A program made the translations under genes and the position numbers. 46,239 nt of DNA, taken from NCBI GenBank assembly GCA_031406795.1, contig JANOHV010000075.1, positions 1 to 46,239 on the forward strand, given 5' to 3'. Below the pieces are notes generated by a model. It saw only the letters and a list, made by a program, of their open reading frames with translations, was not told the DNA's origin and did not search any database. Within the stretch, counting starts at the first letter, position 1. Each line of letters begins with the position of its first letter. Below are positions 4,111 to 46,239 of this stretch, piece after piece. This stretch comes from Candidatus Rokuibacteriota bacterium (lineage in GTDB: Bacteria; JAUVQV01; DATDCY01).

Positions 4111-4479
4111 CTATTCCGCCGCTCGCGTCAGCGGCAGCGGCTGAAAGAAGCAGCTCACACTCCCGGTGTGGCAAGCCGGCCCGGTCTGGTCCACCAGCAC
4201 GAGCAGCGTGTCGGCGTCGCAGTCGGCGCGCACCTCGCGCACCCGCTGCAGACACCCTGAGGTCTCGCCCTTCTTCCAGAGCTTCTGGCGCGAACGACTC
4301 CAGAACACGGTGAACCCGGTCGTCAGCGTCAGTTCCAGCGACGCGCGGTTCATCCAGGCCACCATCAGCACCTCGTGGGTCGTGGCTTCCTGCACCACCG
4401 CCGTGATCAGACCATCCGCGCCGAACCTGAGCGGGGGAAGCGCCCCCGGCGGGAATTCCGTGTGCTGGTGTCCGCTCAT
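4111..4479 (-). CDS. hisI: Phosphoribosyl-AMP cyclohydrolase
   Basis: [32 protein letters not shown] and ACHTG..SCF motifs; start taken at MSGHQH. Confidence 0.93.
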
Positions 4480-4548
4480 GCTTTCACGCACCTGGCGTCC
4501 CGGAACTGCGGCTCTGCGGTCATGGCTCGTGCTGCGCAACCTGGAGGG

Positions 4549-5133
4549 TCAAAGCACGCCTTTCGTCGAAAGCGGACCCGCGATGCGCGCGTCGGCGGTG
4601 GCGGCCTCGCCGAAGGCGCGACCGAACGCCTTGAAGAGCGCCTCGAGGATGTGGTGCTGGTTGCTGCCGTAGTTCAGCGAAAGGTGCACGGTGGCCTGGA
4701 GGTTGGTGACGAGTGCGCGGAAGAACTGCTCCGCAAGGTCGATGTCGAACCCCCCCATCTGCCCGGGGATGGTCGAAACGTTGTAGACCAGGTACGGACG
4801 GGTGACCAGATCGATGTGCACGCTCGCGAGCGCCTCGTCCATCGGGACCCCGGCCTGCCCGTAGCGACGGATGCCGGCACGGTCGCCGAGCGCCTGGCGC
4901 AACGCCTGACCGAGCGTGATGCCGACATCTTCGACCGTGTGGTGCAGATCGATGTCGGTATCGCCGGAGGCTTCGATCTGCAGGCTGAACAGCCCGTGTT
5001 TCGCCAGCAGGGTCAGCATGTGGTCGAAGAAGGGGATGGTGGTGCTTACCTGGATGGGACCGCCCTCGAGGCCGACCGTGACCGCGACCCGGGTCTCGGT
5101 GGTTTCGCGCCGGATGCTCCCCGTCCTGGCCAT
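4549..5133 (-). CDS. hisB: Imidazoleglycerol-phosphate dehydratase
   Basis: RETTET, FFDHML, DLHHTVEDVG, PMDEAL, NQHHILEALFKA and STKGVL motifs. Confidence 0.96.
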   Translation of the reverse strand: MARTGSIRRETTETRVAVTVGLEGGPIQVSTTIPFFDHMLTLLAKHGLFSLQIEASGDTDIDLHHTVEDVGITLGQALRQALGDRAGIRRYGQAGVPMDEALASVHIDLVTRPYLVYNVSTIPGQMGGFDIDLAEQFFRALVTNLQATVHLSLNYGSNQHHILEALFKAFGRAFGEAATADARIAGPLSTKGVL

Positions 5134-5200
5134 CGTGAATCTTCCCCGCTCCCGCCGTGCCAAGGTTGCCTGCTGCAAACGCCGGATTGTACCGCCGCAG

Positions 5201-5266
5201 ACAGTACCGCCGCCGCCGTGGTAAGTCAAGATTATTCTTGACATTAGGGTGAGTCGCCACTACCAT
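5201..5266. promoter_or_regulatory. Back-to-back sigma70 promoters for hisB (minus) and rpmH (plus)
   Basis: Plus: TTGACA(5238-5243)-17-TACCAT(5261-5266). Minus: TTGACT(5229-5224)-17-TACTGT(5206-5201). Confidence 0.65.
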
Positions 5267-5330
5267 TTCCCTCTTTGATGAACGGTATGGGACCGTTCGC
5301 AGCACAGGTTGGTGACGAGGAGAGCACTCG

Positions 5331-5465
5331 ATGTCCATTACGTATCAGCCGAAGAACAAGAAGCGTCAGCGGACCCACGGGTTCCTCGAGCGCATGAGCA
5401 CGGTCGGCGGCCGCAGGGTCATCAACCGGCGGCGGCAGAAGGGCCGGAAGAAGCTCAGCGTCTAG
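5331..5465 (+). CDS. rpmH: 50S ribosomal protein L34
   Basis: Manual translation (44 aa): [44 protein letters not shown]; precedes rnpA. Confidence 0.96.
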
Positions 5466-5475
5466 CCCGCGATTC

Positions 5476-5826
5476 ATGGGCGAGTTTGAATTCCCGACCG
5501 GTCTGCATCTCAAGAAGCCGTCGGAGTTCCGGGCGGTCTTCGACCGGGGGTCAAAGCGCCACACGCGGGGCTTCATTCTTTTTCGCGCGGCGAACCGTCT
5601 GGATCGGCCGCGCCTCGGCGTTTCGGTCAGCCGCAAGATCGGGGGAGCCGTCGTGCGCAATCGTGTCAAGCGGCTGATCCGCGAGGCCTTCCGACTGAAC
5701 TGGCGCGCCTGGGAACTCGCGGGCGCGGATCTCGTGGTGATCGCCAAGCGGGGAGTCGATGCGCTGAGCTTTCAGGAAGTCTCGCGGGAGTTCGCCGGTG
5801 CCCTGCCGTTTCGAACCCGCCGATGA
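5476..5826 (+). CDS. rnpA: Ribonuclease P protein component
   Basis: [25 protein letters not shown] (RNR motif). Confidence 0.96.
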
Positions 5827-6041
5827 AGACCGGCGCCAGGCTGCTGATCGGCCTTCTAACCCTGTACCGGCGGTTCATCTCCCCGCTGCTGCCGGCCGCC
5901 TGCCGCTTTTACCCGTCATGTTCATGTTATGCCATTGAGTCAATTGAGAAATATGGTGTCGGTCGCGGGGCGCTGCTGACCCTGCGACGGCTCGCGAAGT
6001 GCCATCCTTTCCATCCCGGCGGGTACGACCCGGTTCGCTGA
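5823..6041 (+). CDS. yidD: Membrane protein insertion efficiency factor YidD
   Basis: CRFYPSCS and [13 protein letters not shown] motifs. Confidence 0.96.
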
Positions 6042-6061
6042 CCCGTCCGGTCGAGGAGCAC

Positions 6062-7756
6062 ATGGATAAGAGAACGATCCTGGCCGTCGGCCTGATCATC
6101 CTGGTGATCGGGGCCTACAATCTCTTCATCATCCCGACGTTCGCACCGCCGCCACCGCCGGCACCGCCGGCACCCCTGGCGCAGCGGGATGCACCGGCTC
6201 CCGCGCCGACGGCCGTCCAGCCGATCGCTGCGGTGCCCGCCGCTGTGCCCGGCCAGGCTCTCGCGCCTGCCCCGGTGGTGGCCGTGCCTGCCGAGGAGAT
6301 CGTGATCGATCGCCCCAACTGGGCGGCCACCTTCTCCAACGTCGGCGGGGGCCTCAAGAGTTGGGGGCTCAAGTCCTACACGTATGCCAAGGGTCAGCTC
6401 GATCCTGCCGGCGCCGCGATCGGGGGCGCGCCTCTCGAGATCGTGCGCCCCGGATCGGCAGCACCGCCGCTGTCGTTCACGTTTGTCGACCCGGCAACGC
6501 AGGCGGCTTTTTCCGCGCCCATGGCGATCACGAAGACGGCTGACGGCTTCACCCTGACGGGTGACGACAGCCATGGCCTGCGTCTGACCCGGACCTACCG
6601 TTTCTCCGCCGACCAGTACCTCATGGAAATGCTGATCTCCATCGAGAACAGCGGCGAGAGCCCGCGCTCGATCCCCTGGGAAATGGCGTTCGGCCCCGGC
6701 CTTGACCGCAATCTCCCTGAAAAGGACAAAACCGACGAGGGCATCAAAATTCTCGTGGCCGGGAGCCTGGACGATGTGAAGATCAAGAAGGTCGGCGAGC
6801 GCCGGGAGCTGGGGCAGGTTTCGTGGGCAGCCATCGGCAACCGCTACTTCCTCGCCGCCCTGGTGCCCATGGAGGGCTCGCTGTCGGCCTTTGCGCGGCG
6901 GACCACCACGACGGGCGAGGAGGTCGGCCTTCGCTCCGAGAGTGTCTCGCTCGCGCCGCGCCAGGCGGTGAGCTACCGCATCGCGACCTACCTCGGGCCC
7001 AAGGACCGGGCGCTGCTCACCGCGGCCGTCCCGGGCAAGGAGCTGGAGCGCGGCGTCGACTACGGCTGGTTCTGGTGGCTGGCGCTGCCCTTCCTGGTCA
7101 TCCTGCAGTTCTGTTTCAAATTCCTACACAGCTACGGCCTGGCCATTGTCGCGCTGACGCTGCTGGTCAAAGCCGCGCTCTTCCCGATCAGTTTCAAGAT
7201 GTTCCGCTCGATGAAGAAGATGCAGGAGCTCCAGCCAAAACTGGCGTCGCTCAAGGCGAAGTTCAAGGGCGACAACCAGGGCCTGCAGCAGGCGACCATG
7301 GCGATCTACAAGGAGCACAAAGTCAACCCGATGGCCGGCTGCCTGCCGATGGTCGTGCAGATCCCGGTCTTTTTCGCGCTGTACAAGGTGCTCTACAACG
7401 CAATCGAGCTGCGCGGCGCGGGGTTCCTCTACATTCCGGACCTCTCGCTCAAGGATCCCTACTACATCACGCCGATCCTGATGGGCGTGACGATGCTCAT
7501 CCAGCAGCGCATGACCCCGTCGGTCGGCGACCCGATGCAGGCGAAGATGATGATGTTCATGCCGGTGATCATGACCGCCATGTTCATCAACTTCTCCTCG
7601 GGACTGGTGCTCTATTTCCTCTTCTCGAACATCATGTCGATCGGCGAGCAGAAGCTCTTCCGCGCGATCGCCGCCCGGGGGCAGGCGAAGCCCGCCCCCG
7701 AGGACGATTCCGGCGGCGGCCGCAGGAAGAAACTGCCCCGCGAAAAACGCCAGTAA
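6062..7756 (+). CDS. yidC: Membrane protein insertase YidC
   Basis: MDKRTILAV N-terminal TM, VDYGWFW, NPMAGCLP and DLSLKDPYYITP motifs. Confidence 0.96.
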   Translation: MDKRTILAVGLIILVIGAYNLFIIPTFAPPPPPAPPAPLAQRDAPAPAPTAVQPIAAVPAAVPGQALAPAPVVAVPAEEIVIDRPNWAATFSNVGGGLKSWGLKSYTYAKGQLDPAGAAIGGAPLEIVRPGSAAPPLSFTFVDPATQAAFSAPMAITKTADGFTLTGDDSHGLRLTRTYRFSADQYLMEMLISIENSGESPRSIPWEMAFGPGLDRNLPEKDKTDEGIKILVAGSLDDVKIKKVGERRELGQVSWAAIGNRYFLAALVPMEGSLSAFARRTTTTGEEVGLRSESVSLAPRQAVSYRIATYLGPKDRALLTAAVPGKELERGVDYGWFWWLALPFLVILQFCFKFLHSYGLAIVALTLLVKAALFPISFKMFRSMKKMQELQPKLASLKAKFKGDNQGLQQATMAIYKEHKVNPMAGCLPMVVQIPVFFALYKVLYNAIELRGAGFLYIPDLSLKDPYYITPILMGVTMLIQQRMTPSVGDPMQAKMMMFMPVIMTAMFINFSSGLVLYFLFSNIMSIGEQKLFRAIAARGQAKPAPEDDSGGGRRKKLPREKRQ

Positions 7757-25342: not shown

Positions 25343-25441
25343 GGGAGCGGATGGGTCACTGGTGGGCCCCCCGGACTTCAAATCCGGTCGGCGGGCGCTA
25401 ATCACGTCCGCGGTAGGTTCGATTCCTACACGTTCCCGCCA
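25343..25441 (+). tRNA. selC: tRNA-Sec (anticodon UCA)
   Basis: Anticodon arm CCGGA-CTTCAAA-TCCGG, long variable arm, T arm GTAGG-TTCGATT-CCTAC, 3' GCCA. Confidence 0.93.
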
Positions 25442-25684: not shown

Positions 25685-26758
25685 CTAGCGGTCGCCCTCG
25701 GCCATCGCCTTGCCGAACGCGGCCCAGAACGGATCGACCCGGGGGTGCTCCAGCGTACGGATGCGGCCGCCCTCGGCGAGCGTGATCCCCTCGGCCTCCG
25801 GGAGCGTCTCGCCGATGACGGCGGCGGCAATGCCCTTCGCAGCGAGGCGAGCCAGAATTTCCGCCGTCCGGTGCTTCTTGCACGTCAGCACGAGCGTCCC
25901 CTCGCTGATCGACGTGAACGGGTCGATCGCGAAGAGGCGGCAGACCTTCTCGACCTCCTCCGGCACCATGATCCGCTCGCGCTCGATGCGCATGCCGACG
26001 CGCGAGGCCCGGGCGACCTCGTACAGGCCGCCCCAGAGGCCGCATTCGGTCGCATCGTGCATCGCGGTCACGCCGTCCTCGCGCACGCCCACGGATGCTG
26101 CGATCGTGGCTTCCTCGACGACGCTCATTTGTCCGAACATGGCGTCCGCCCGCCGGGCGAAATCGGCCCCGTAGGCCGCCGCGACGCGTTTCGGGAAGGT
26201 CGCGGCGAAGAGCGCCGTCGCCTCGATGGCCGGGCCCTTGGTGATCACGACGTCCTCGCCCGCCCCGGCCATCGCCGGCGTCACATAGCGATCGCGCGGG
26301 CCGGTGGCCATCACGGTTGCCCCGCCGATCATCGGGTACTCGCAGCCCTGGTAGCGCGCCGTGTGCCCGGCGATGACGGCGATGCCGAGCTTGTCGCACT
26401 CGGCGTGCATCGCGCGCCAGAGGGTGACGAACTGCTCCTTGGTGATGCCGAGCGGCAGGTTCAGGTCGATCGTCATCCACCGCGGCGCCAGCCCCGAGAC
26501 GGCCGCGTCCGAGGCGAGGATGTGCACCGCGAACCACGCCGAGCGCTCCCAGCCGTACTGCGGCACGACGAAGACCGGGTCGCACGTGACGGCCATGACG
26601 TTGCCGCCACCGATGTCCACCACGCCGATGTCCACCCCGTGCTGCGGCGGCACGAGCACCGCGGGGTCGCGGCGCCCAAGCCGCGGGTAAATGACTTCCT
26701 CGAAGATCTCGGGCGAGATCTTGCCGATCTCGGGCAGCTCGTGCACGTGCTCGTTCAT
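25685..26758 (-). CDS. AIR synthase/HypE/ThiL-superfamily protein
   Basis: IGKI, GVDIGV, TCDP, ASDAAVSG, AGHT, MHDATECG and ISEGTL motifs. Confidence 0.88.
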   Translation of the reverse strand: MNEHVHELPEIGKISPEIFEEVIYPRLGRRDPAVLVPPQHGVDIGVVDIGGGNVMAVTCDPVFVVPQYGWERSAWFAVHILASDAAVSGLAPRWMTIDLNLPLGITKEQFVTLWRAMHAECDKLGIAVIAGHTARYQGCEYPMIGGATVMATGPRDRYVTPAMAGAGEDVVITKGPAIEATALFAATFPKRVAAAYGADFARRADAMFGQMSVVEEATIAASVGVREDGVTAMHDATECGLWGGLYEVARASRVGMRIERERIMVPEEVEKVCRLFAIDPFTSISEGTLVLTCKKHRTAEILARLAAKGIAAAVIGETLPEAEGITLAEGGRIRTLEHPRVDPFWAAFGKAMAEGDR

Positions 26759-26761
26759 CGC

Positions 26762-26848
26762 TTTCCCTCCGCAGGCATTACCCTGACAGGTTGCGGGGTC
26801 GGCCCAGGCGGACCCTCTCAGCCGTCCGCAGACAGCTCCCCCAAGCAT
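26762..26848 (-). ncRNA. TPP riboswitch
   Basis: Minus strand GGGGGAGC...GCTGAGAG...GACCC..AACCTG..AGGGTAATGCCTGCGGAGGGA matches the THI-box consensus. Confidence 0.92.
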
Positions 26849-26855
26849 GGTCGGT

Positions 26856-29134: not shown

Positions 29135-29200
<66 letters not shown>

Positions 29201-29210
<10 letters not shown>

Positions 29211-38012: not shown

Positions 38013-39134
38013 CTAGAGCCGCATCGGCATCACGACACAGCGGTAGCCGTCGTCACCCAGGGGCCGCACGAGCGTGGGGCTCAGGATCTCGTTCATCTCG
38101 ATGATGACCTTCTCCTGCTCGATGACGGCGAAAACATCCTGCACATACCGGCCGTTCAGACCCAGTTCGATGTCGCCGCCGGTGAACTCGATTTCGACAT
38201 CCTCCGTGGCCTCGCCCAACTCCGGGTTGACGGCGGTCACGGCGACTTTGTCCGCCGAAAAACCAAAGCGCAGCAGGTTCACCCGGTCGGCGGTCACGGT
38301 GGAAACGCGGCGCACCGCGCGATAGAACGATTCGCGCTCGACGATGGCGACCCGGGTGCCCCCCGTCGGGATCACCTGGTGATAGTCGGGGAACTGCCCG
38401 TCCACCAGCCTCGTCACCAGCAGGCTCGCCCCGATGCTGATAAAGAGCCGGTTTTCCTGGAAGGACATTTCGACCGCCGAACCGATGTTCTCCTCGCCGA
38501 TGAGCTTGCGCACCTCGGCGATCGCCTTGCGCGGCACGATGACTCCGCGATTCCCGACGACCGCGGCCCGGCAGCGACGCTGGATGAAGGCCAGCCGGTG
38601 ACCGTCCGTGGCGATCAGCCGCAGATCGGCCTCGTCGCCGCTGACGGGCGCCACCTCGAGAAGAATGCCGTTGAGCGCCTGCCTCGTCTGATCGTGGGAC
38701 ATGGCAAAGGCGGTCTTCTCGATGGCTTCGGCGAGAAGCGCCGGGGGAATCTCGATCTTCTCTCCCTCCTGCCCGATCGGCAGGGCGGGAAAGTCGTCCT
38801 TCGGCAGACTCATCACCTTGAATCTGGCCCGGCCCATTTCGATCCGTAACCACCCCTTGTCGCCGTCGATCAGCCGGACATCGCCATCGGGCAACTCGCG
38901 CACGATCTCGAAGAGCTTCTTCGCCGGGGCGGTGACCACCCCCTCCTTGGCGATCTGCACCGGGTAGCGGCTGCGCAGGAAGATCTCCAGGTCCGTCGCC
39001 GACACGGCCAGTTCGGAACCGTGGGCTTCGAGCAGAACGCTCGAGAGAATCGGGACGGTGTTCTTCTTCTCGACGATCCCCTGGACCCGTGCGAGAGCAT
39101 TCGCGAGATCAGCCTTGGTGATGGTGATGTCCAT
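38013..39134 (-). CDS. dnaN: DNA polymerase III beta clamp
   Basis: ATDLE, ATDGHRLA, GQFPDY and VVMPMRL motifs. Confidence 0.98.
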   Translation of the reverse strand: MDITITKADLANALARVQGIVEKKNTVPILSSVLLEAHGSELAVSATDLEIFLRSRYPVQIAKEGVVTAPAKKLFEIVRELPDGDVRLIDGDKGWLRIEMGRARFKVMSLPKDDFPALPIGQEGEKIEIPPALLAEAIEKTAFAMSHDQTRQALNGILLEVAPVSGDEADLRLIATDGHRLAFIQRRCRAAVVGNRGVIVPRKAIAEVRKLIGEENIGSAVEMSFQENRLFISIGASLLVTRLVDGQFPDYHQVIPTGGTRVAIVERESFYRAVRRVSTVTADRVNLLRFGFSADKVAVTAVNPELGEATEDVEIEFTGGDIELGLNGRYVQDVFAVIEQEKVIIEMNEILSPTLVRPLGDDGYRCVVMPMRL

Positions 39135-39363: not shown

Positions 39364-40701
39364 TCACGCCTGTATCCTCCGTGTGATCGTGTCGATCGTG
39401 TTCTGGACTTCGACGCTGGTCTTCTTCTTCTCGGCGATGATGTTCAGCGAGTGGATCACCGTCGAGTGGTCGCGGCCCCCGAACATCTTGCCGATCACCG
39501 GCAGCGAGGAGGAGGTCAACTGGCGGCACAGGTGCATCGCGAGCTGGCGCGGGTAGACCAGGTTCTGCGTGCGGCGCTTGGAGATCAGGTCGGAGAGCTT
39601 GATCCCGAAGTAGGTGGCGACCTCGCGCTTGATCTCGTCGATCGTGATCGTCTTCTCGCTGGCCGCGAGCATGTCCTTGAGGGTCTCGCGGGCGAACTCG
39701 ATCGTGATCTCGCGGTTGCCGAGCGAAGAGTACGCCCCGAGACGGACCAGGGCGCCCTCCAACTCGCGGATGTGCGACTTGATGGAACTGGCGACGAAGA
39801 GCGCCACTTCGTCGGGAATGGCGATCCCGTTCTGTTCGGCCTTCTTGCGCAGGATCGCGATCTTGGTCTCCAGGTCGGGCATCTGGATGTCGGCGATCAG
39901 GCCCCACTCGAAGCGCGATCGCAGCCGCTCCTCGAGATCCGGGATGTCGCGCGGCACCTTGTCCGAAGTGAGCACGATCTGCTTGTGCGACTCGTGGATC
40001 GAGTTGAAGGTGTGGAAGAACTCCTCCTGGGTCTTTTCCTTGCCCGCGATGAACTGGATATCGTCGATGAGCAGCAGTTCCATGTTCCGGTAGCGGTTGC
40101 GAAACGCCGACATGCGGTCGTAGCGGATGGATTGGATCAACTCGTTGATGAACGTCTCGGCGGTCAGGTACATGATGCGGGCGCCCGGGTTGCGCTCCAG
40201 GAATCGGTGCCCGATCGCATGCAGCAGATGGGTCTTGCCGAGACCGACGCCGCCGTAGAGAAAGAGCGGGTTGTAGGTCTTGGAGTGCCCGTCGGCAACG
40301 GCGAGGCTCGCCGCGTGCGCCATCTGGTTGCTGGAGCCCACGACGAACGTGTCGAAGGAATACTTGTTGTTGAGGACCGTGCCGCCGTGATGGATCGTCC
40401 GCGTGAAGGGCAGGTCATCCTGGCGCGGGCGCTCTTCCTCTGCCTTGCGCTCCGCCGGCTGGAAGACGACGGTGCACTCGCGCCCCGCGATCGCGGAGGC
40501 CGTCTCGCGGATCAGCACCTGGAAGTTCTCATTGAGCCAGTCCTTGAAGAATTTGCTGGGCACCGAAACGACGAGCGTCCCCTCGGAGAAGCGCTCCTGG
40601 AGCGTCGGGGAGAACCACGTCGAGAAGCTCTGTTCGTTGACGTGCGAGCGCACGCGCTCCTTGACCTGATCCCAGAGATCGAGAGGCTCCTGCGTGCTCA
40701 T
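39364..40701 (-). CDS. dnaA: Chromosomal replication initiator DnaA
   Basis: YNPLFLYGGVGLGKTHL, DDIQF, RLRSRFEWGL and GGRDHSTV motifs. Confidence 0.99.
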   Translation of the reverse strand: MSTQEPLDLWDQVKERVRSHVNEQSFSTWFSPTLQERFSEGTLVVSVPSKFFKDWLNENFQVLIRETASAIAGRECTVVFQPAERKAEEERPRQDDLPFTRTIHHGGTVLNNKYSFDTFVVGSSNQMAHAASLAVADGHSKTYNPLFLYGGVGLGKTHLLHAIGHRFLERNPGARIMYLTAETFINELIQSIRYDRMSAFRNRYRNMELLLIDDIQFIAGKEKTQEEFFHTFNSIHESHKQIVLTSDKVPRDIPDLEERLRSRFEWGLIADIQMPDLETKIAILRKKAEQNGIAIPDEVALFVASSIKSHIRELEGALVRLGAYSSLGNREITIEFARETLKDMLAASEKTITIDEIKREVATYFGIKLSDLISKRRTQNLVYPRQLAMHLCRQLTSSSLPVIGKMFGGRDHSTVIHSLNIIAEKKKTSVEVQNTIDTITRRIQA

Positions 40702-42180: not shown

Positions 42181-43449
42181 TTAGCCATCCGCCGGGCTTC
42201 TCACCATCAACCCCGGCCGGTTGAGCACGTGCGTGTAGATCATCGTCGTCGAGACATCCGAGTGCCCGAGCAGTTCCTGCACAGTGCGGATGTCCGCGCC
42301 GGATTCGAGCAGATGGGTCGCGAACGAGTGGCGCAGCGTGTGGCAACTCGCGCGTTTGGCGATCCCGGCGCGAGTCACGGCGGCCTTCACGGCCTTTTGC
42401 AGGACGCTCTCGTCCACGTGGTGCCGGCGAGTTCTTCCGGTTCCCGGCTCAATGCAGAGGCGTGCTGCTGGAAAGACATACTGCCAGGGCCATTCTCTCG
42501 GGGCTCCGGGGTACTTGCGTTCCAGGGCGGGCGGGAAGGTCGTGCCGAAGAACCCGGCCTCGCTATCGAGCCTCCAGAGGGCGCGGATCCGCTCCAGATG
42601 CTGGACAACCGCCTCCCGGTAGCGCTCGGGCAGTACCGACAGGCGGTCCTTGCGGCCCTTGCCCTCGCGCACCGTAATCTGCCGGCGCTCCAGGTCGAGA
42701 TCCTTGACCCTCAGAGTAATCAGCTCCTGCAGCCGCAGACCGGATCCGTACAGCAGGCTCGCCATCAGGGCGGTGTCCCCATTCATGGCCGCAAGGAGAC
42801 GCGAGATTTCGGCCCGGGTCAGCACAACGGGGATGAAGCGCGGTCGCTTGGATTTCTGGAAATCCCCCAGATCGCCGAGTTCCCTGCCCAGGGCCTGTTT
42901 GAACCAGAACACCAGAGCGTTGAGAGCCTGAGCCTGCGTCGATGCCGATACCATCCCGGCGACGACAAGCTGCTCCAGAAAAGCCCTGACGAGTGCGGCG
43001 TCGGATCCGACGGTCGGTCGGGCTTTGCGGAAAGCCACGAAGCGGCGAACCCACTGAGCGTACGACTCCTCGGTTCTGCGGGAGTAGCCCCGCGCACGAC
43101 AAGCGGCCCGCAATGGGTCAAGATCGCCATCAACCGTGCGCCCAGGGGGAGCATCCTCAACCACCTCCCAACGCTTGCCATACACTGCGGTAAGCAGTAA
43201 CCTCAACGAATAATACGCACTGCGGATTTTCCAGTCCTCGGCGCCGGGCGTGGATCGGAGGGTTGTCGTGAACGACTCCACATCTTCTCTGACTGCCGCA
43301 GGTAGCGGTTTTCCCTCGAGAAAACCAGCAAACCGCTCGACCCAACGCACGCACCACGGCCGCAGTGTCGCCGGCACCCCGGTGATTTCAAGTGCACGAA
43401 GATACGGCGTGTACCACGAAGCATCGGCGCAGAGCTTCCCGTCATCCAT
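42181..43449 (-). CDS. intI: Integron integrase (long form with extra N-terminal domain)
   Basis: YSRRTEESY, SASTQAQALNAL, LLYGSGLR, GKGRKDR, integron-specific ALERKYP..W.WQYVFPA..RRHH, HTLRHSFATHLL and LGH..VSTTMIYTH. Confidence 0.96.
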   Translation of the reverse strand: MDDGKLCADASWYTPYLRALEITGVPATLRPWCVRWVERFAGFLEGKPLPAAVREDVESFTTTLRSTPGAEDWKIRSAYYSLRLLLTAVYGKRWEVVEDAPPGRTVDGDLDPLRAACRARGYSRRTEESYAQWVRRFVAFRKARPTVGSDAALVRAFLEQLVVAGMVSASTQAQALNALVFWFKQALGRELGDLGDFQKSKRPRFIPVVLTRAEISRLLAAMNGDTALMASLLYGSGLRLQELITLRVKDLDLERRQITVREGKGRKDRLSVLPERYREAVVQHLERIRALWRLDSEAGFFGTTFPPALERKYPGAPREWPWQYVFPAARLCIEPGTGRTRRHHVDESVLQKAVKAAVTRAGIAKRASCHTLRHSFATHLLESGADIRTVQELLGHSDVSTTMIYTHVLNRPGLMVRSPADG

Positions 43450-43509
43450 GACCCATCCTCCCGCTTGGGCGACTGGGGTAGCAAAAGCCATGCTAGGCCG
43501 CCACCGCCC

Positions 43510-43574
43510 CGACTGGATAACACGGCGGCGGGTACGACTGGATAAAGCTGCCGCCACCTAATCAACTGTTAGCC
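43510..43574 (+). other. attI: attI site
   Basis: Core GTTAGCC (43568-43574) is the complement of the first attC R'' GGCTAAC; 11-bp direct repeats CGACTGGATAA upstream. Confidence 0.8.
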
Positions 43575-43900: not shown

Positions 43901-44027
43901 GGCTAACCAGGCGTTGTAGCCGACGGATCACGCTTGCATTTCTGCCCTTTGAGGCTAAGGTCAATGCCAGCGGCAACGTTCTAATACGGGCAGGCAAGCG
44001 CGCCCGCGGCTAAACGCTACGTTAGCT
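43901..44027 (+). other. attC: attC site 1
   Basis: GGCTAAC-CAGGCGTTGTAGCCG...CGGCTAAACGCTAC-GTTAGCT; imperfect palindrome. Confidence 0.92.
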
Positions 44028-44040
44028 TTGAAAGGATAAG

Positions 44041-44613
44041 ATGACCAAGGAGCGGAAGGCAATTCCACGGGTGATCCGGGATGGGGTGCTCAAGGAATAT
44101 CATCACTCCTGTGCGATATGCGGTGGCAAGAATCCGCATTTGCACCACATCGATGAGAATCCGAACAATAACGAACCCATGAATCTTATCCCTCTGTGCC
44201 CGAACCACCATCTTCGAGACCAACATGATCCGACGTCACCACTTGAAGCCGGAATTCTTGTCCTATTCCGGAAATTCAAGGATCCAACAGTCTTGTCACC
44301 CCAATTCTACCCACTCTACAAACGTCTCAAAGTGCTTGACACGCATATTGCCAATATCAGGGACCCAGACGTTCTCAAACAAGACCTGAAAGATCTCATA
44401 GAATTTGTGTCTACATTGGCTATGGGACAGTACTATTCGAAGAAGATTAAGGAAATCATGAAGATCTCTTCTTGGGCCACCACAACGGAAGACATATTGA
44501 ATTTCCGCTCACCACAATCTCCCCAGTACCTGTTTCGAAATGAGAGGGAACAAATCGAGGAAATGGTTGTTGAACTTCTCCGTTACCAGGGATGGGAATA
44601 CAAAGCAAGCTAA
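44041..44613 (+). CDS. Integron cassette 2: HNH endonuclease domain protein
   Basis: CAICG..HLHHID..N...NLIPLCPNHH; stop codon lies inside the attC2 R''. Confidence 0.88.
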   Translation: MTKERKAIPRVIRDGVLKEYHHSCAICGGKNPHLHHIDENPNNNEPMNLIPLCPNHHLRDQHDPTSPLEAGILVLFRKFKDPTVLSPQFYPLYKRLKVLDTHIANIRDPDVLKQDLKDLIEFVSTLAMGQYYSKKIKEIMKISSWATTTEDILNFRSPQSPQYLFRNEREQIEEMVVELLRYQGWEYKAS

Positions 44614-44704
44614 CCAGGCGTTGTAGCCGACGATCCGGTCTGTCACGGTCTGTGCAGAGCACAGCCCGCGCCATCCCGTCCCGCGGTTAAACGCAACGTT
44701 AGGC
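44608..44704 (+). other. attC: attC site 2
   Basis: AGCTAAC (complement of GTTAGCT at 44021)...CGGTTAAACGCAAC-GTTAGGC. Confidence 0.92.
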
Positions 44705-44715
44705 GGAAAAATACA

Positions 44716-45189
44716 ATGACAACAGACCGGCCCCAGTTCATCGCAATCGCGTTTGCTGGCATCGTGACCATAGCAGTCGTCTTCCGGGCACTACATGGCA
44801 TACTGAAGGCCGCCATTGCATCAACTATCCTCAATGCATGGCCTAAATACATGCCCTCTGACTTTCAACCGAGTGCCATGTTTACGGTGCTCATCAATGT
44901 GTTTGTCGATGCTATCACTGCTCTTCCAGTTGCGGTCCTTGTCGCGATCTTCGCTCGAATACTTCTCAGAAGACAGATACTGCCAGTGGCTAGCCTGTCA
45001 GCTCTTCTTATGCTTGCCCTCGATAAGAGAGTTCATCATTTCGTTCGAAATGAGTACGACGAGAACTATCTCGCCTTCGTGCTGAGTGCGGCGATCGGTC
45101 CAATAGTTCTACTCATAGCATCTTTTGTGTCAGACAAGGCCAACACTTCGAAGCAAGGAGCAGAGAAAATGCCTAACCAGGCGTTGTAG
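44716..45189 (+). CDS. Integron cassette 3: hypothetical membrane protein (~4 TM)
   Basis: Four hydrophobic stretches; fills the attC2-attC3 interval. Confidence 0.8.
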   Translation: MTTDRPQFIAIAFAGIVTIAVVFRALHGILKAAIASTILNAWPKYMPSDFQPSAMFTVLINVFVDAITALPVAVLVAIFARILLRRQILPVASLSALLMLALDKRVHHFVRNEYDENYLAFVLSAAIGPIVLLIASFVSDKANTSKQGAEKMPNQAL

Positions 45190-45292
45190 CCGACAGTCAC
45201 GCTTGCATTTCTGCCCTTTGCGTTTAGAGTCGGCTCCAAGGGCAACTATGCAAATACGGGCAGGCAAGCGCGCCTGCGGCTAAACGCTACGT
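45171..45292 (+). other. attC: attC site 3, interrupted in R' by the intron
   Basis: GCCTAAC (complement of GTTAGGC at 44698)...CGGCTAAACGCTAC-GT, then GTGCG instead of TRRRY; interior close to attC1. Confidence 0.9.
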
Positions 45293-46100
45293 GTGCGAGG
45301 TCTCGAAACCATCATCTTGCGATCTGAAAGGAGATCGCCACACCAAGTGCCCTTGTGGGTGTGTAGGCAGGAGGCGGGCTGGCGTGGTAACACGGCGGTC
45401 GAACATGCCTCGACACGGCACCGCGAAGGCTCGCTCTGCAATGGGGCGGGTCGTACCCAGTCGGGGGTGCTGGCCAAACGTGCAGGCCGCAGCATAAAGC
45501 GAACAGTGCAGCCTCGTGAATTTAGGCCGGACGGCGATAGCTGGGAGAGTCCGGTAGCGGGATAAACCAACGCGAGTTGGCTACGCGCCGACCCTCTACG
45601 TAGAAGGGGGCCAGTGCCTGTCGGGAAGCAAAGGGCAAACGCACCGATGGGGGACCCGGGGTAAGGCTGACAGCATGCACGGACAGATGATGGAGGTAGG
45701 ACCTGAAATCCCACCGTACCCCGTCGTTCTCCGACGGCGGTAAGCGGGCGCCAAGTCGGGTGCAACCGGCAAGATGACCGTTACGGGCGGAGGGATGTCG
45801 GAGGGGCCGGAGAAGTGAAGATGGGCAGGAGAGAAGAGTCTGCCTGGAGCGTGCGGCCCTGCTTCGACCAAGTCTGTTTTTCAGGGAGGGAGGCATGAGT
45901 GCCGTCAAGGCTAGGAACATGCGAAACACGGTCCGAGCCCTGCAAAACACACTCTTGTGCAGCGAAACAGTCGCTGGATAGGAGATTCGGAGCCCTCTAC
46001 GATAAAGTGTATCGGGAGGACGTACTGCGGACGGCCTGGAAACAGGTCAGGGCGAACGATGGGGCGCCCGGAGTCGATCGGCAGAGTTTCGAGTACATCG
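45293..46100 (+). mobile_element. Group II intron, 5' part only (DI-DIII and start of the RT ORF)
   Basis: 5' GTGCGA; AGCGAA..GCCTCG..GCCGAC EBS1 stem; TCGGAGGGGCC...GGAGCG..GGCCCT DIII-like segment; RT0 motif downstream; no DV/DVI seen. Confidence 0.88.
45895..46100 (+). pseudogene. ltrA: Group II intron reverse transcriptase/maturase fragment
   Basis: GGAGG SD and ATG 45895 [20 protein letters not shown], frameshift near 45955, then [41 protein letters not shown]; similarity ends near 46100. Confidence 0.88.
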
Positions 46101-46198
46101 TAAGTCCTCGCCCTACCCCGACTGCACATTTTCCTCGTCGGCAGGCGTCTTCGTGATGGCCGCCGGGTCACGGTCGAGCGCCGGTCCGGCCGGGCGGT

Positions 46199-46239
46199 CT
46201 ACTGCAGGGTGTTCTTCTTCAACTCCGCGGGGAGGAAGG
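46199..46239 (-). CDS. Probable 3' end of a chromosomal gene entering from beyond the window
   Basis: FLPAELKKNTLQ* with high-GC3 codons. Confidence 0.35.
   Translation of the reverse strand, partial: FLPAELKKNTLQ

Follow-up and report, generated by a model that had tools for sequence, protein, structure and literature searches.

A putative IIB-like group II intron in the top strand of an integron attC site, and the recurrence of attC targets among its relatives

An intron segment at the third attC site of an integron

The stretch of DNA analyzed here (the window) is the entire 46,239-nt contig C235 of a Candidatus Rokuibacteriota genome (G000, 278 contigs), and near its right-hand end it carries an integron whose third attC site is followed directly by the 5' part of a group II intron. 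Three cassettes lie on the plus strand downstream of the integrase gene intI, each closed by an attC of one sequence family. The features at the junction, in window coordinates, are:

42181–43557, minus strand: intI, integron integrase (TIGR02249, 403.1 bits against a cut-off of 265; open reading frame (ORF) of 458 aa)
43901–44027, plus strand: attC1, intact, R'' GGCTAAC and R' GTTAGCT, read from sequence and used as the reference for attC3
44608–44704, plus strand: attC2, intact, R'' AGCTAAC and R' GTTAGGC, read from sequence
45171–45292, plus strand: attC3, cut after the GT of R' (R'' GCCTAAC at 45171–45177; arm score 15)
45293–46099, plus strand: group II intron 5' segment, with domains I–III, the start of domain IV and the N-terminus of the reverse transcriptase (RT), by nhmmer homology and a sub-threshold match to RF02003

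attC3 shares 85% identity with attC1 over 128 nt, and its final 19 nt match attC1 letter for letter through ...GGCTAAACGCTACGT (45292); past this point, attC1 reads TAGC and attC3 reads GTGCGAGG. In 18 full-length or 5'-complete relatives homology starts at 45293–45295 (L068 and L008 have GTGCGAGGTCTCGAA in common), and because it begins there we take 45293 as the first intron base. Just this junction had been proposed in a first-pass annotation made from the letters of the window, and both the sequence and the start of homology in the relatives confirm it. attC3 has the R''...AAC and GTT...R' ends, paired L box and extrahelical bases in the L'' arm of an attC site, in an array beside intI. 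Its 5' arm carries two single-base bulges, which is why we read it as the top strand.

The 3' half of the intron appears to lie on another contig. Besides the N-terminal fragment in the window, the genome holds only two group II RT sequences, an unrelated full-length one on contig C157 and a partial one on contig C198. The latter starts at the contig end and covers residues ~205–429 of P0010, a full-length relative of the window RT, at 56% identity; TIGR04416 matches it at E 7.5e-53, below the whole-protein cut-off, the protein being partial. On the reverse complement of C198, a domain V with the AGC triad (726–759) is followed by a long domain VI (760–872), whose bulged A lies 7 nt before ...CUCUAC, in keeping with the 7–8 nt between this base and the 3' splice site in group II introns. 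The two halves co-occur in the same relative loci, ~2.26 kb apart (nhmmer with window 45293–45900 and the C198 3' part), and unitig depths of 11–16 in public run X1 fit a single copy. Across relatives the intron boundaries are conserved, with GTRCGAGG as the 5' end and GGTTCTACTCTAC as the 3' end, and against the group II consensus (5' GUGYG, 3' AY) we find GUGCG at 45293 and the family end ...CUCUAC.

Downstream of the intron end, C198 continues with TCGCCAGAAAG and then a brnT/brnA pair. Joined to this 3' flank, attC3 reads ...CGCTACGT|TCGCC, which gives an R' of GTTCGCC, and the rebuilt ACGT|TCGCC is similar to ACGTTCGGC sites that stand intact in this genome. Because attC3 ends in GT, and the intron family ends in ...CUCUAC followed by TCGCC, we place the insertion at GT|T of R'. 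The integron integrase IntI crosses over at G|TT. On this sequence evidence, the intron is inserted between GT and T of the attC3 R', in the top strand. Its insertion point lies 3' of the IntI crossover by one base, and it runs in the sense direction of the cassette ORFs and diverges from intI. The position, strand and orientation had all been put forward from the window, and they are supported by the junction, the C198 3' end and the relatives.

Could the junction have arisen without an intron insertion, as cassette cargo placed by IntI or as an assembly artifact? The contig ends in a repeat, the join to that repeat at 46100 is unbridged and four runs continue otherwise beyond it (see below), all of which would suit an artifact. 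The same attC–intron junction, however, is found in L008, behind a full attC, in L088, and within unitigs starting at 45276–45289 in four public runs. Placement by IntI would leave both T's downstream, since IntI joins at G|TT, whereas here one T stands on each side. We regard this explanation as extremely unlikely.

Ribozyme and reverse transcriptase of the intron

RF02003 matches the window at 45325–45497 with 32.9 bits (cut-off 49, E 2.3e-5) and relatives with 40.7 and 29.4 bits. The relatives L014 and L013 match RF00029 at 33.7 and 32.0 bits (cut-off 40), and these matches end exactly at the predicted 3' ends of the introns. The RT starts at the ATG at 45895, leaving 602 nt of 5' ribozyme part before the ORF, in agreement with the roughly 600 nt estimated in the first-pass annotation.

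A 47-residue query from the RT N-terminus matched 2615 proteins at E ≤0.001, among them P0010 (429 aa), to which the window RT N-terminus is about 79–79.6% identical. P0010 consists of RVT_1 and GIIM domains only and is without an endonuclease (En) domain. In a rough comparison with solved RTs, P0010 matched LtrA at 5.3e-51, GsI-IIC at 1.1e-49, the 6me0 maturase RT at 4.5e-48 and 7uim at 7.1e-47. GsI-IIC and 7uim we take to be IIC RTs, and LtrA and 6me0 presumably represent IIA/IIB RTs; by this rough test, P0010 is about equally distant from solved IIA, IIB and IIC RTs.

Probable target recognition by pairing of intron and exon

Two candidate exon-binding sites (EBS) in domain I pair with intron-binding sites (IBS) within the last 13 nt of attC3:

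45280–45284, plus strand: IBS2 (CTAAA), within the L' box of attC3, complement of 45521–45525
45287–45292, plus strand: IBS1 (CTACGT), spacer plus GT of R', six of six pairs with 45598–45603
45521–45525, plus strand: EBS2 (TTTAG), from exon covariation with a shuffled-pair control
45598–45603, plus strand: EBS1 (ACGTAG), in a hairpin loop, from the alignment and pairing statistics

In an alignment of 19 introns the EBS1 hairpin loop varies with the final 6–7 nt of the 5' exon, and the EBS2 element, which follows a conserved CGTRA, contains an exon complement of at least 6 nt in 14 of the 19 introns (alignment columns ~260–268). Two other candidates for EBS2, the loop at ~45530–45545 and the stretch AUAAAGCG (~45495), showed no covariation with the exon and were rejected. 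To quantify the pairing, we used 55 distinct intron–exon combinations, drawn from the 57 of 69 introns with both anchoring motifs. EBS1 pairs at a mean of 5.40 of 6 positions with its own exon against 3.05 with the exons of other introns, and 50/55 introns have at least 5/6 paired with their own exon. For EBS2, the longest pairing run averages 5.82 with the own exon and 4.28 in cross pairings, and a run of at least 6 occurs in 32/55 own against 511/2968 cross pairings. Among the attC-sited members examined EBS1 is ACGU, EBS2 differs with the L' box of the host, and T is the first base of the 3' exon at all attC sites with a known 3' junction.

Pairing through both EBS1 and EBS2 points to the IIA/IIB type of homing and away from the IIC type. 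Since EBS1 and EBS2 covary with the exon, and the RT of the relative is without an En domain, we classify the intron, on these features, as IIB-like and not IIC, which supports the IIB-like assignment of the first-pass annotation. IIC introns combine a ribozyme lacking EBS2 with a class C RT; here EBS2 covaries, and the RT distances, in the rough test above, are equal.

The insertion point does share a local motif with the known IIC-attC introns, GT|T at the end of an attC inverted repeat recalling their TTGT/T, so that a class C intron of the S.ma.I2 kind in the other orientation might be considered. EBS2–IBS2 pairing, an EBS1 of 6 nt, the 602 nt before the ORF and an RT no closer to solved IIC RTs than to LtrA or the 6me0 maturase RT all speak against it, as do the strand and orientation: IIC-attC introns are bottom-strand insertions running antisense to the cassettes, and the window intron is neither. 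Such an origin is very improbable.

Insertion sites of the relatives

Searches with the C198 RT part gave 100 relatives in genome contigs and 335 in metagenome contigs, and we took the best 80 loci of each. These 160 loci include the 5' junction in 68 cases, the 3' junction in 81 and both in 53. The 61 sites whose 5' flank is 60 nt or longer were tested for attC structure, with GTT positions of the same loci as controls. The insertion is at GT|T or GT|? in 22/61 sites. A strict pattern (AAC, spacer, helix, 1-nt bulge in the 5' arm, helix, second bulge, helix, spacer, GTT) was found at 7/61 sites against 13/8825 control GTT positions, and a looser arm-alignment score of at least 14 at 11/61 sites against 48/8825 controls (0.54%). 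The 11 sites are the window (W), L014, L025, L068, L094, L097, L110, L111, L124, L132 and L163; all are interrupted at the same GT|T position, and their attC sequences differ. By eye, we recognized six more: L008, L011, L088 (which has a short flank and belongs to the same attC family), L119, L147 and L158; L161 is doubtful. Two further sites, in L024 and L027, are unclassified, and the tyrosine recombinases beside L024 and L067 were rejected as integron evidence, being Xer-like and not integron integrases.

A model with bulges in the 5' arm scores higher at 11/11 of these sites and at 16 of 17 compared in all, the remaining one being a tie, a result biased by the use of the 5'-arm score in their selection. 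In three cases the context supports an attC, namely intI beside the window site, the cassettes of L008 and a second attC in L068, which is another copy of the locus's own attC 2.2 kb upstream; the L068 intron is an ORF-less derivative. On the 3428-bp L008 contig, two ends of one intron enclose three cassettes (GNAT, BrnTA-like and HicAB-like), all with an attC of their own; the intron copy is internally deleted from ~intron position 276 to RT domain 2. The contig thus starts and finishes with one and the same intron sequence (115 nt identical), which would reflect a tandem or circular arrangement, or else the collapse of two copies. By the labels of their metagenome-assembled genomes, the hosts of attC-sited introns are Rokubacteria, Pseudomonadota (three) and Pirellulaceae, with Spirochaetaceae for one case recognized by eye.

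To ask how attC targeting is distributed, we built two trees. The careful tree has 50 rows, with 31 short or stop-containing rows omitted, and places the window with L008 (100/100) within a family clade supported at 100/98. On it, the attC label changes three times, two of them forced. The quick tree has 104 rows, with L166, L028 and L055 dropped and four of the distant loci L029–L053 and L056–L087 as outgroup. It contains a clade of 55 rows (support 82) with 34 non-GT sites and no attC site, and all 17 attC-labelled rows fall outside it, in the other lineages. Since attC-sited introns occur in every lineage but the derived clade, attC targeting would, most simply, be old in the family, with one clade having moved to other targets, although there may instead have been several independent gains. 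Targets in the derived clade read ...GGGTCGCATCTAAATTAT|AAAGT..TTGACA or ...CTTGAATAG|TGAAT and occur in L013, L016, L023, L028, L015, L055, L012 and ~30 metagenome loci. The L055 target lies within the 5' arm of a perfect palindrome, and the L028 site lies ~110 nt past an attC-like GTTATGC, with an intI fragment (TIGR02249, 81 bits, 82 aa) 2.2 kb away.

These distributions bear on whether attC is the target of the lineage or the window presents a chance hit, in which an ordinary homing IIB intron entered one attC that happened to resemble its site. The 55-row clade goes to other targets, and its EBS1 and EBS2 differ accordingly; retargeting through base pairing is general for such introns; and 39/61 sites are not GT|T. 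By contrast, sites passing the arm test are far more frequent among insertions than among control positions, all of them are at GT|T and better fit by the top-strand bulge model (with the selection bias noted), and they occur in several host phyla with differing attC sequences. A chance hit therefore seems to us quite unlikely. The first-pass annotation had proposed an independently evolved attC-homing lineage, to be doubted if homologs inserted elsewhere; the recurrence of attC at 11/61 sites, in several lineages, bears this out in part, and the insertions of the derived clade at non-attC targets do not.

A related question is whether recognition is mainly structural, as in IIC introns, with the folded top-strand attC hairpin being read and EBS–IBS pairing secondary. 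Insertion at the 3' foot of a hairpin recalls IIC introns, which insert after terminators and into attC bottom strands, and Sonbol & Siam speculate on such a role for structure (PMC7923331); moreover, the EBS2 pairing in the window is short. On the other side, EBS1 and EBS2 covary with exons in attC and non-attC members alike, and among the derived-clade sites none with an attC-type hairpin was found. We consider mainly structural recognition unlikely, and the top-strand hairpin itself may still play a part in targeting.

State of the window copy

The window intron stops short within its RT, as the last two features of the contig show:

45895–46099, plus strand: RT N-terminus, frameshifted, split over two frames and 2 nt short after 45956 relative to sibling alleles
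46100–46239, no strand assigned: end of a multi-copy repeat (insertion sequence-like, unclassified), reaching to the contig end; contigs C221, C37, C128 and C212 end in the same way

We compared contigs from public runs X1, X2, X4 and X15 over 44900–46239. Sibling alleles in X2, X15 and X4 have CC or TC behind 45956, which restores the RT frame, and those in X2 and X4 have GAA behind 45608, beside the EBS1 hairpin, so that 3 nt are lost from domain I in the window. Run X1, which contains 89% of the sampled words of the stretch, has the same deletions as the window. The frameshift is real in X1, and the window intron copy is decayed.

RT homology ends at 46099/46100, where the repeat begins. 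This repeat is common to five contig ends of the genome and has a depth of 174 in X1, against ~11 for the flanks. Past 46100, contigs of four runs carry other letters in its place (8 in X2, 160–255 in the others), which extend the RT frame as read by eye, and the join between intron and repeat is bridged by no listed unitig of the four runs. Because the runs continue as RT, the repeat is deep and no unitig bridges the join, we attribute the break at 46100 either to an allele present in a minority or to a join made in assembly. In one X1 contig, 45292 is followed directly by 46100 (with 21 nt on one side), as if the repeat also followed an attC ending in ...ACGT elsewhere. X15 is a metatranscriptome run whose contigs derive from a ~97% identical relative; DNA carry-over is possible there, and we draw no sign of transcription or splicing from it.

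Surroundings of the integron and other introns of the genome

In the intI ORF as listed, ~145 residues precede the IntI domain (residues 146–457), and the real start is probably internal. The protein of cassette 2 (44041–44613) matches the HNH region of IscB weakly (E 5.6e-4) and nothing in Pfam. The genes dnaN (38013–39134) and dnaA (39364–40701) are found less than 1.5 kb from intI. The GC skew, negative between position 1 and ~38 kb, changes sign near dnaA/dnaN at 38–41 kb, and the integron appears to adjoin the replication origin. Rfam matches above the gathering score in the window are a tRNA-Sec (25343–25437), a thiamine pyrophosphate riboswitch (26747–26852) and a tRNA (29138–29210). 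The host phylum is poorly sampled, with 6 genomes among ~200,000 species in the genome set.

A second, unrelated full-length group II intron (L168/L006) lies on the reverse complement of C157 at ~4373–6570. Its RT (495 aa) is made up of RVT_N, RVT_1 and GIIM and lacks an En domain, and a search for relatives of this RT found none outside G000 among the 6 genomes of the phylum. The C157 intron is also sense-oriented on an attC's top strand, at ...ACGTTCG|[TTGCGAC...CTCGGT]|GCAGAG. An ORF-less relative of it occupies positions 1–245 of the C157 reverse complement, at the contig end, and is followed by a cassette ORF. On C210, at ~1830–2289, a 5'-truncated intron fragment with a degenerate domain V (AAC for the AGC triad) abuts the inner part of an attC.

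A proposed mechanism of insertion

We propose that the intron reverse-spliced into the top strand of attC3, in the cassette sense, between GT and T of R'. EBS1 (ACGUAG) would pair with the spacer and GT (CUACGU), and EBS2 (UUUAG) with the L' box (CUAAA). Introns without an En domain are reported to rely on replication forks for priming (PMC4424553). As the RT lacks an En domain, DNA synthesis would be primed from the replication fork on the lagging-strand template. By the GC skew, the plus strand of the cassettes would serve as lagging-strand template, the strand expected for entry. Being sense-oriented, the intron could be spliced out of the cassette transcript driven by the cassette promoter Pc. 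In the DNA, GTTCGCC is replaced by GTGTGCG, and recombination by IntI at attC3 should for this reason be lost as long as the intron is present.

Several results weigh against this account. All group II models of Rfam stay below their gathering scores, both in the window and in the relatives, and the RF00029 search did not report the C198 domain V. No unitig in the four public runs has at least 31 nt on both sides of 45292|45293. TCGCC is a putative partner of attC3, because the two halves lie on separate contigs and a P0010 query found no match for RT residues ~70–204 in the G000 assembly. The EBS2 contrast with shuffled pairs is weaker than that of EBS1, and the window EBS2 pairing is only 5 bp. 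Among the relatives, the objective attC test is passed by only 11/61 sites, and most metagenome flanks are too short for arrays or intI. A test based on minimum free energy folds with AAC paired to GTT, positive at 8/61 sites and 69/861 controls, was dropped as unspecific. Finally, because the careful tree needs two to three changes, the attC label may have had more than one origin.

With these points taken into account, we hold it very probable that attC3 contains the 5' part of an En-less, IIB-like intron that reverse-spliced into its top strand at GT|T by base pairing, and that its family is widespread, with members at this attC position in different hosts and in all lineages outside one derived clade. 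We also lean, if only slightly, toward a stronger reading, in which an unnamed, widespread En-minus IIB-like lineage specializes in attC top strands, with EBS1 fixed on the nearly invariant ..CGU where spacer and R' meet and EBS2 re-tuned to the L' box of each host, as a second colonization of integrons by introns, separate in origin from the IIC-attC introns and unlike them in strand and in mode of recognition. The first-pass reading as a whole is partly supported, and its interpretation is for the most part right.

If confirmed, the base-pairing reading means that integrons host two unrelated intron lineages on opposite strands, and that a sense intron could in principle leave the cassette mRNA while disabling the recombination site in the DNA. 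This would matter for the stability of cassette arrays, for models of cassette formation and as a natural base-pairing intron aimed at attC. Were the specialist reading true, such introns, sense-oriented and able to splice, could be silent for cassette expression yet lock neighboring cassettes together in the DNA, and recombination between copies could join an attC to new downstream genes.

Comparison with known introns at attC sites

The first-pass annotation had taken top-strand, sense insertion to be undocumented, which does not stand. Sonbol & Siam (2021, Mob DNA 12:8, PMC7923331) describe UHB.I2, a sense-oriented CL1/IIB1 intron that directly follows an attC and has UUGCG..GU boundaries, and H.ha.F1/F2, 5'-truncated class-E fragments in a cluster of attC sites lacking an integrase (CALIN) that is rich in BrnT/A toxin–antitoxin cassettes. 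The same paper cites a top-strand IIC intron in Enterobacter cloacae (Rodriguez-Martinez, Nordmann & Poirel 2012, J Bacteriol 194:150). The novelty of the window intron is lowered because sense-oriented IIB introns beside attC and a top-strand IIC intron were already reported.

PMC7923331 reports poor exon conservation among UHB.I2 relatives and proposes no pairing to attC, and for the IIB introns in cassette arrays it gives neither an insertion point in R' nor a mechanism. A literature search returned no other report of IIB or top-strand attC introns, and the supplements of that paper (attC folds and exon logos) may bear on H.ha.F1/F2. Nor did the search return any report of a lineage homing by base pairing to R', or find in print where exactly in R' the GT|T insertion lies, a pairing of EBS1/EBS2 with the 3' arm of attC, its recurrence in several lineages, or ORF-less (L068) and deleted (L008) derivatives. 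The review PMC4424553 assigns attC targeting to class C only and other lineages to ordinary sites.

UHB.I2 and H.ha.F1/F2 (PMC7923331) resemble the window intron in being IIB-type with En-minus intron-encoded proteins, in the cassette orientation, in lying beside attC and in occurring in arrays rich in BrnT/A, a pair that also follows the C198 3' exon. The UUGCG..GU boundaries of UHB.I2 match those of the C157 intron and not those of the window intron; the class-E H.ha.F1/F2 are 5'-truncated and have lost their insertion point, whereas the window intron has its 5' junction; and the Enterobacter cloacae intron is reported as IIC, whereas the window intron is IIB-like by the features above.

Introns of the RmInt1 type, which home without an En domain, are primed at forks by nascent strands. 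The likeness to them lies in the absence of an En domain, the choice of target by EBS–IBS pairing and the expected priming by nascent strands at forks. RmInt1-type introns use a single-copy site of 20–35 bp, whereas the window family would use variable recombination sites.

The closest parallel in target choice is with the IIC-attC introns such as S.ma.I2, which insert into the bottom strand at TTGT/T of R'', antisense to the cassettes (Leon, Quiroga, Centron & Roy; PMC3001079 and PMC7923331). Both are group II retroelements at attC whose insertion point is GT|T in the consensus of the inverted repeat, where the hairpin of the entered strand has its 3' foot, and each parts a cassette from a piece of its recombination site. 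They differ in that IIC-attC introns have class C RTs and small ribozymes without EBS2, whereas the window intron lies in R' of the top strand, sense to the cassettes, and appears IIB-like, with covarying EBS1 and EBS2.

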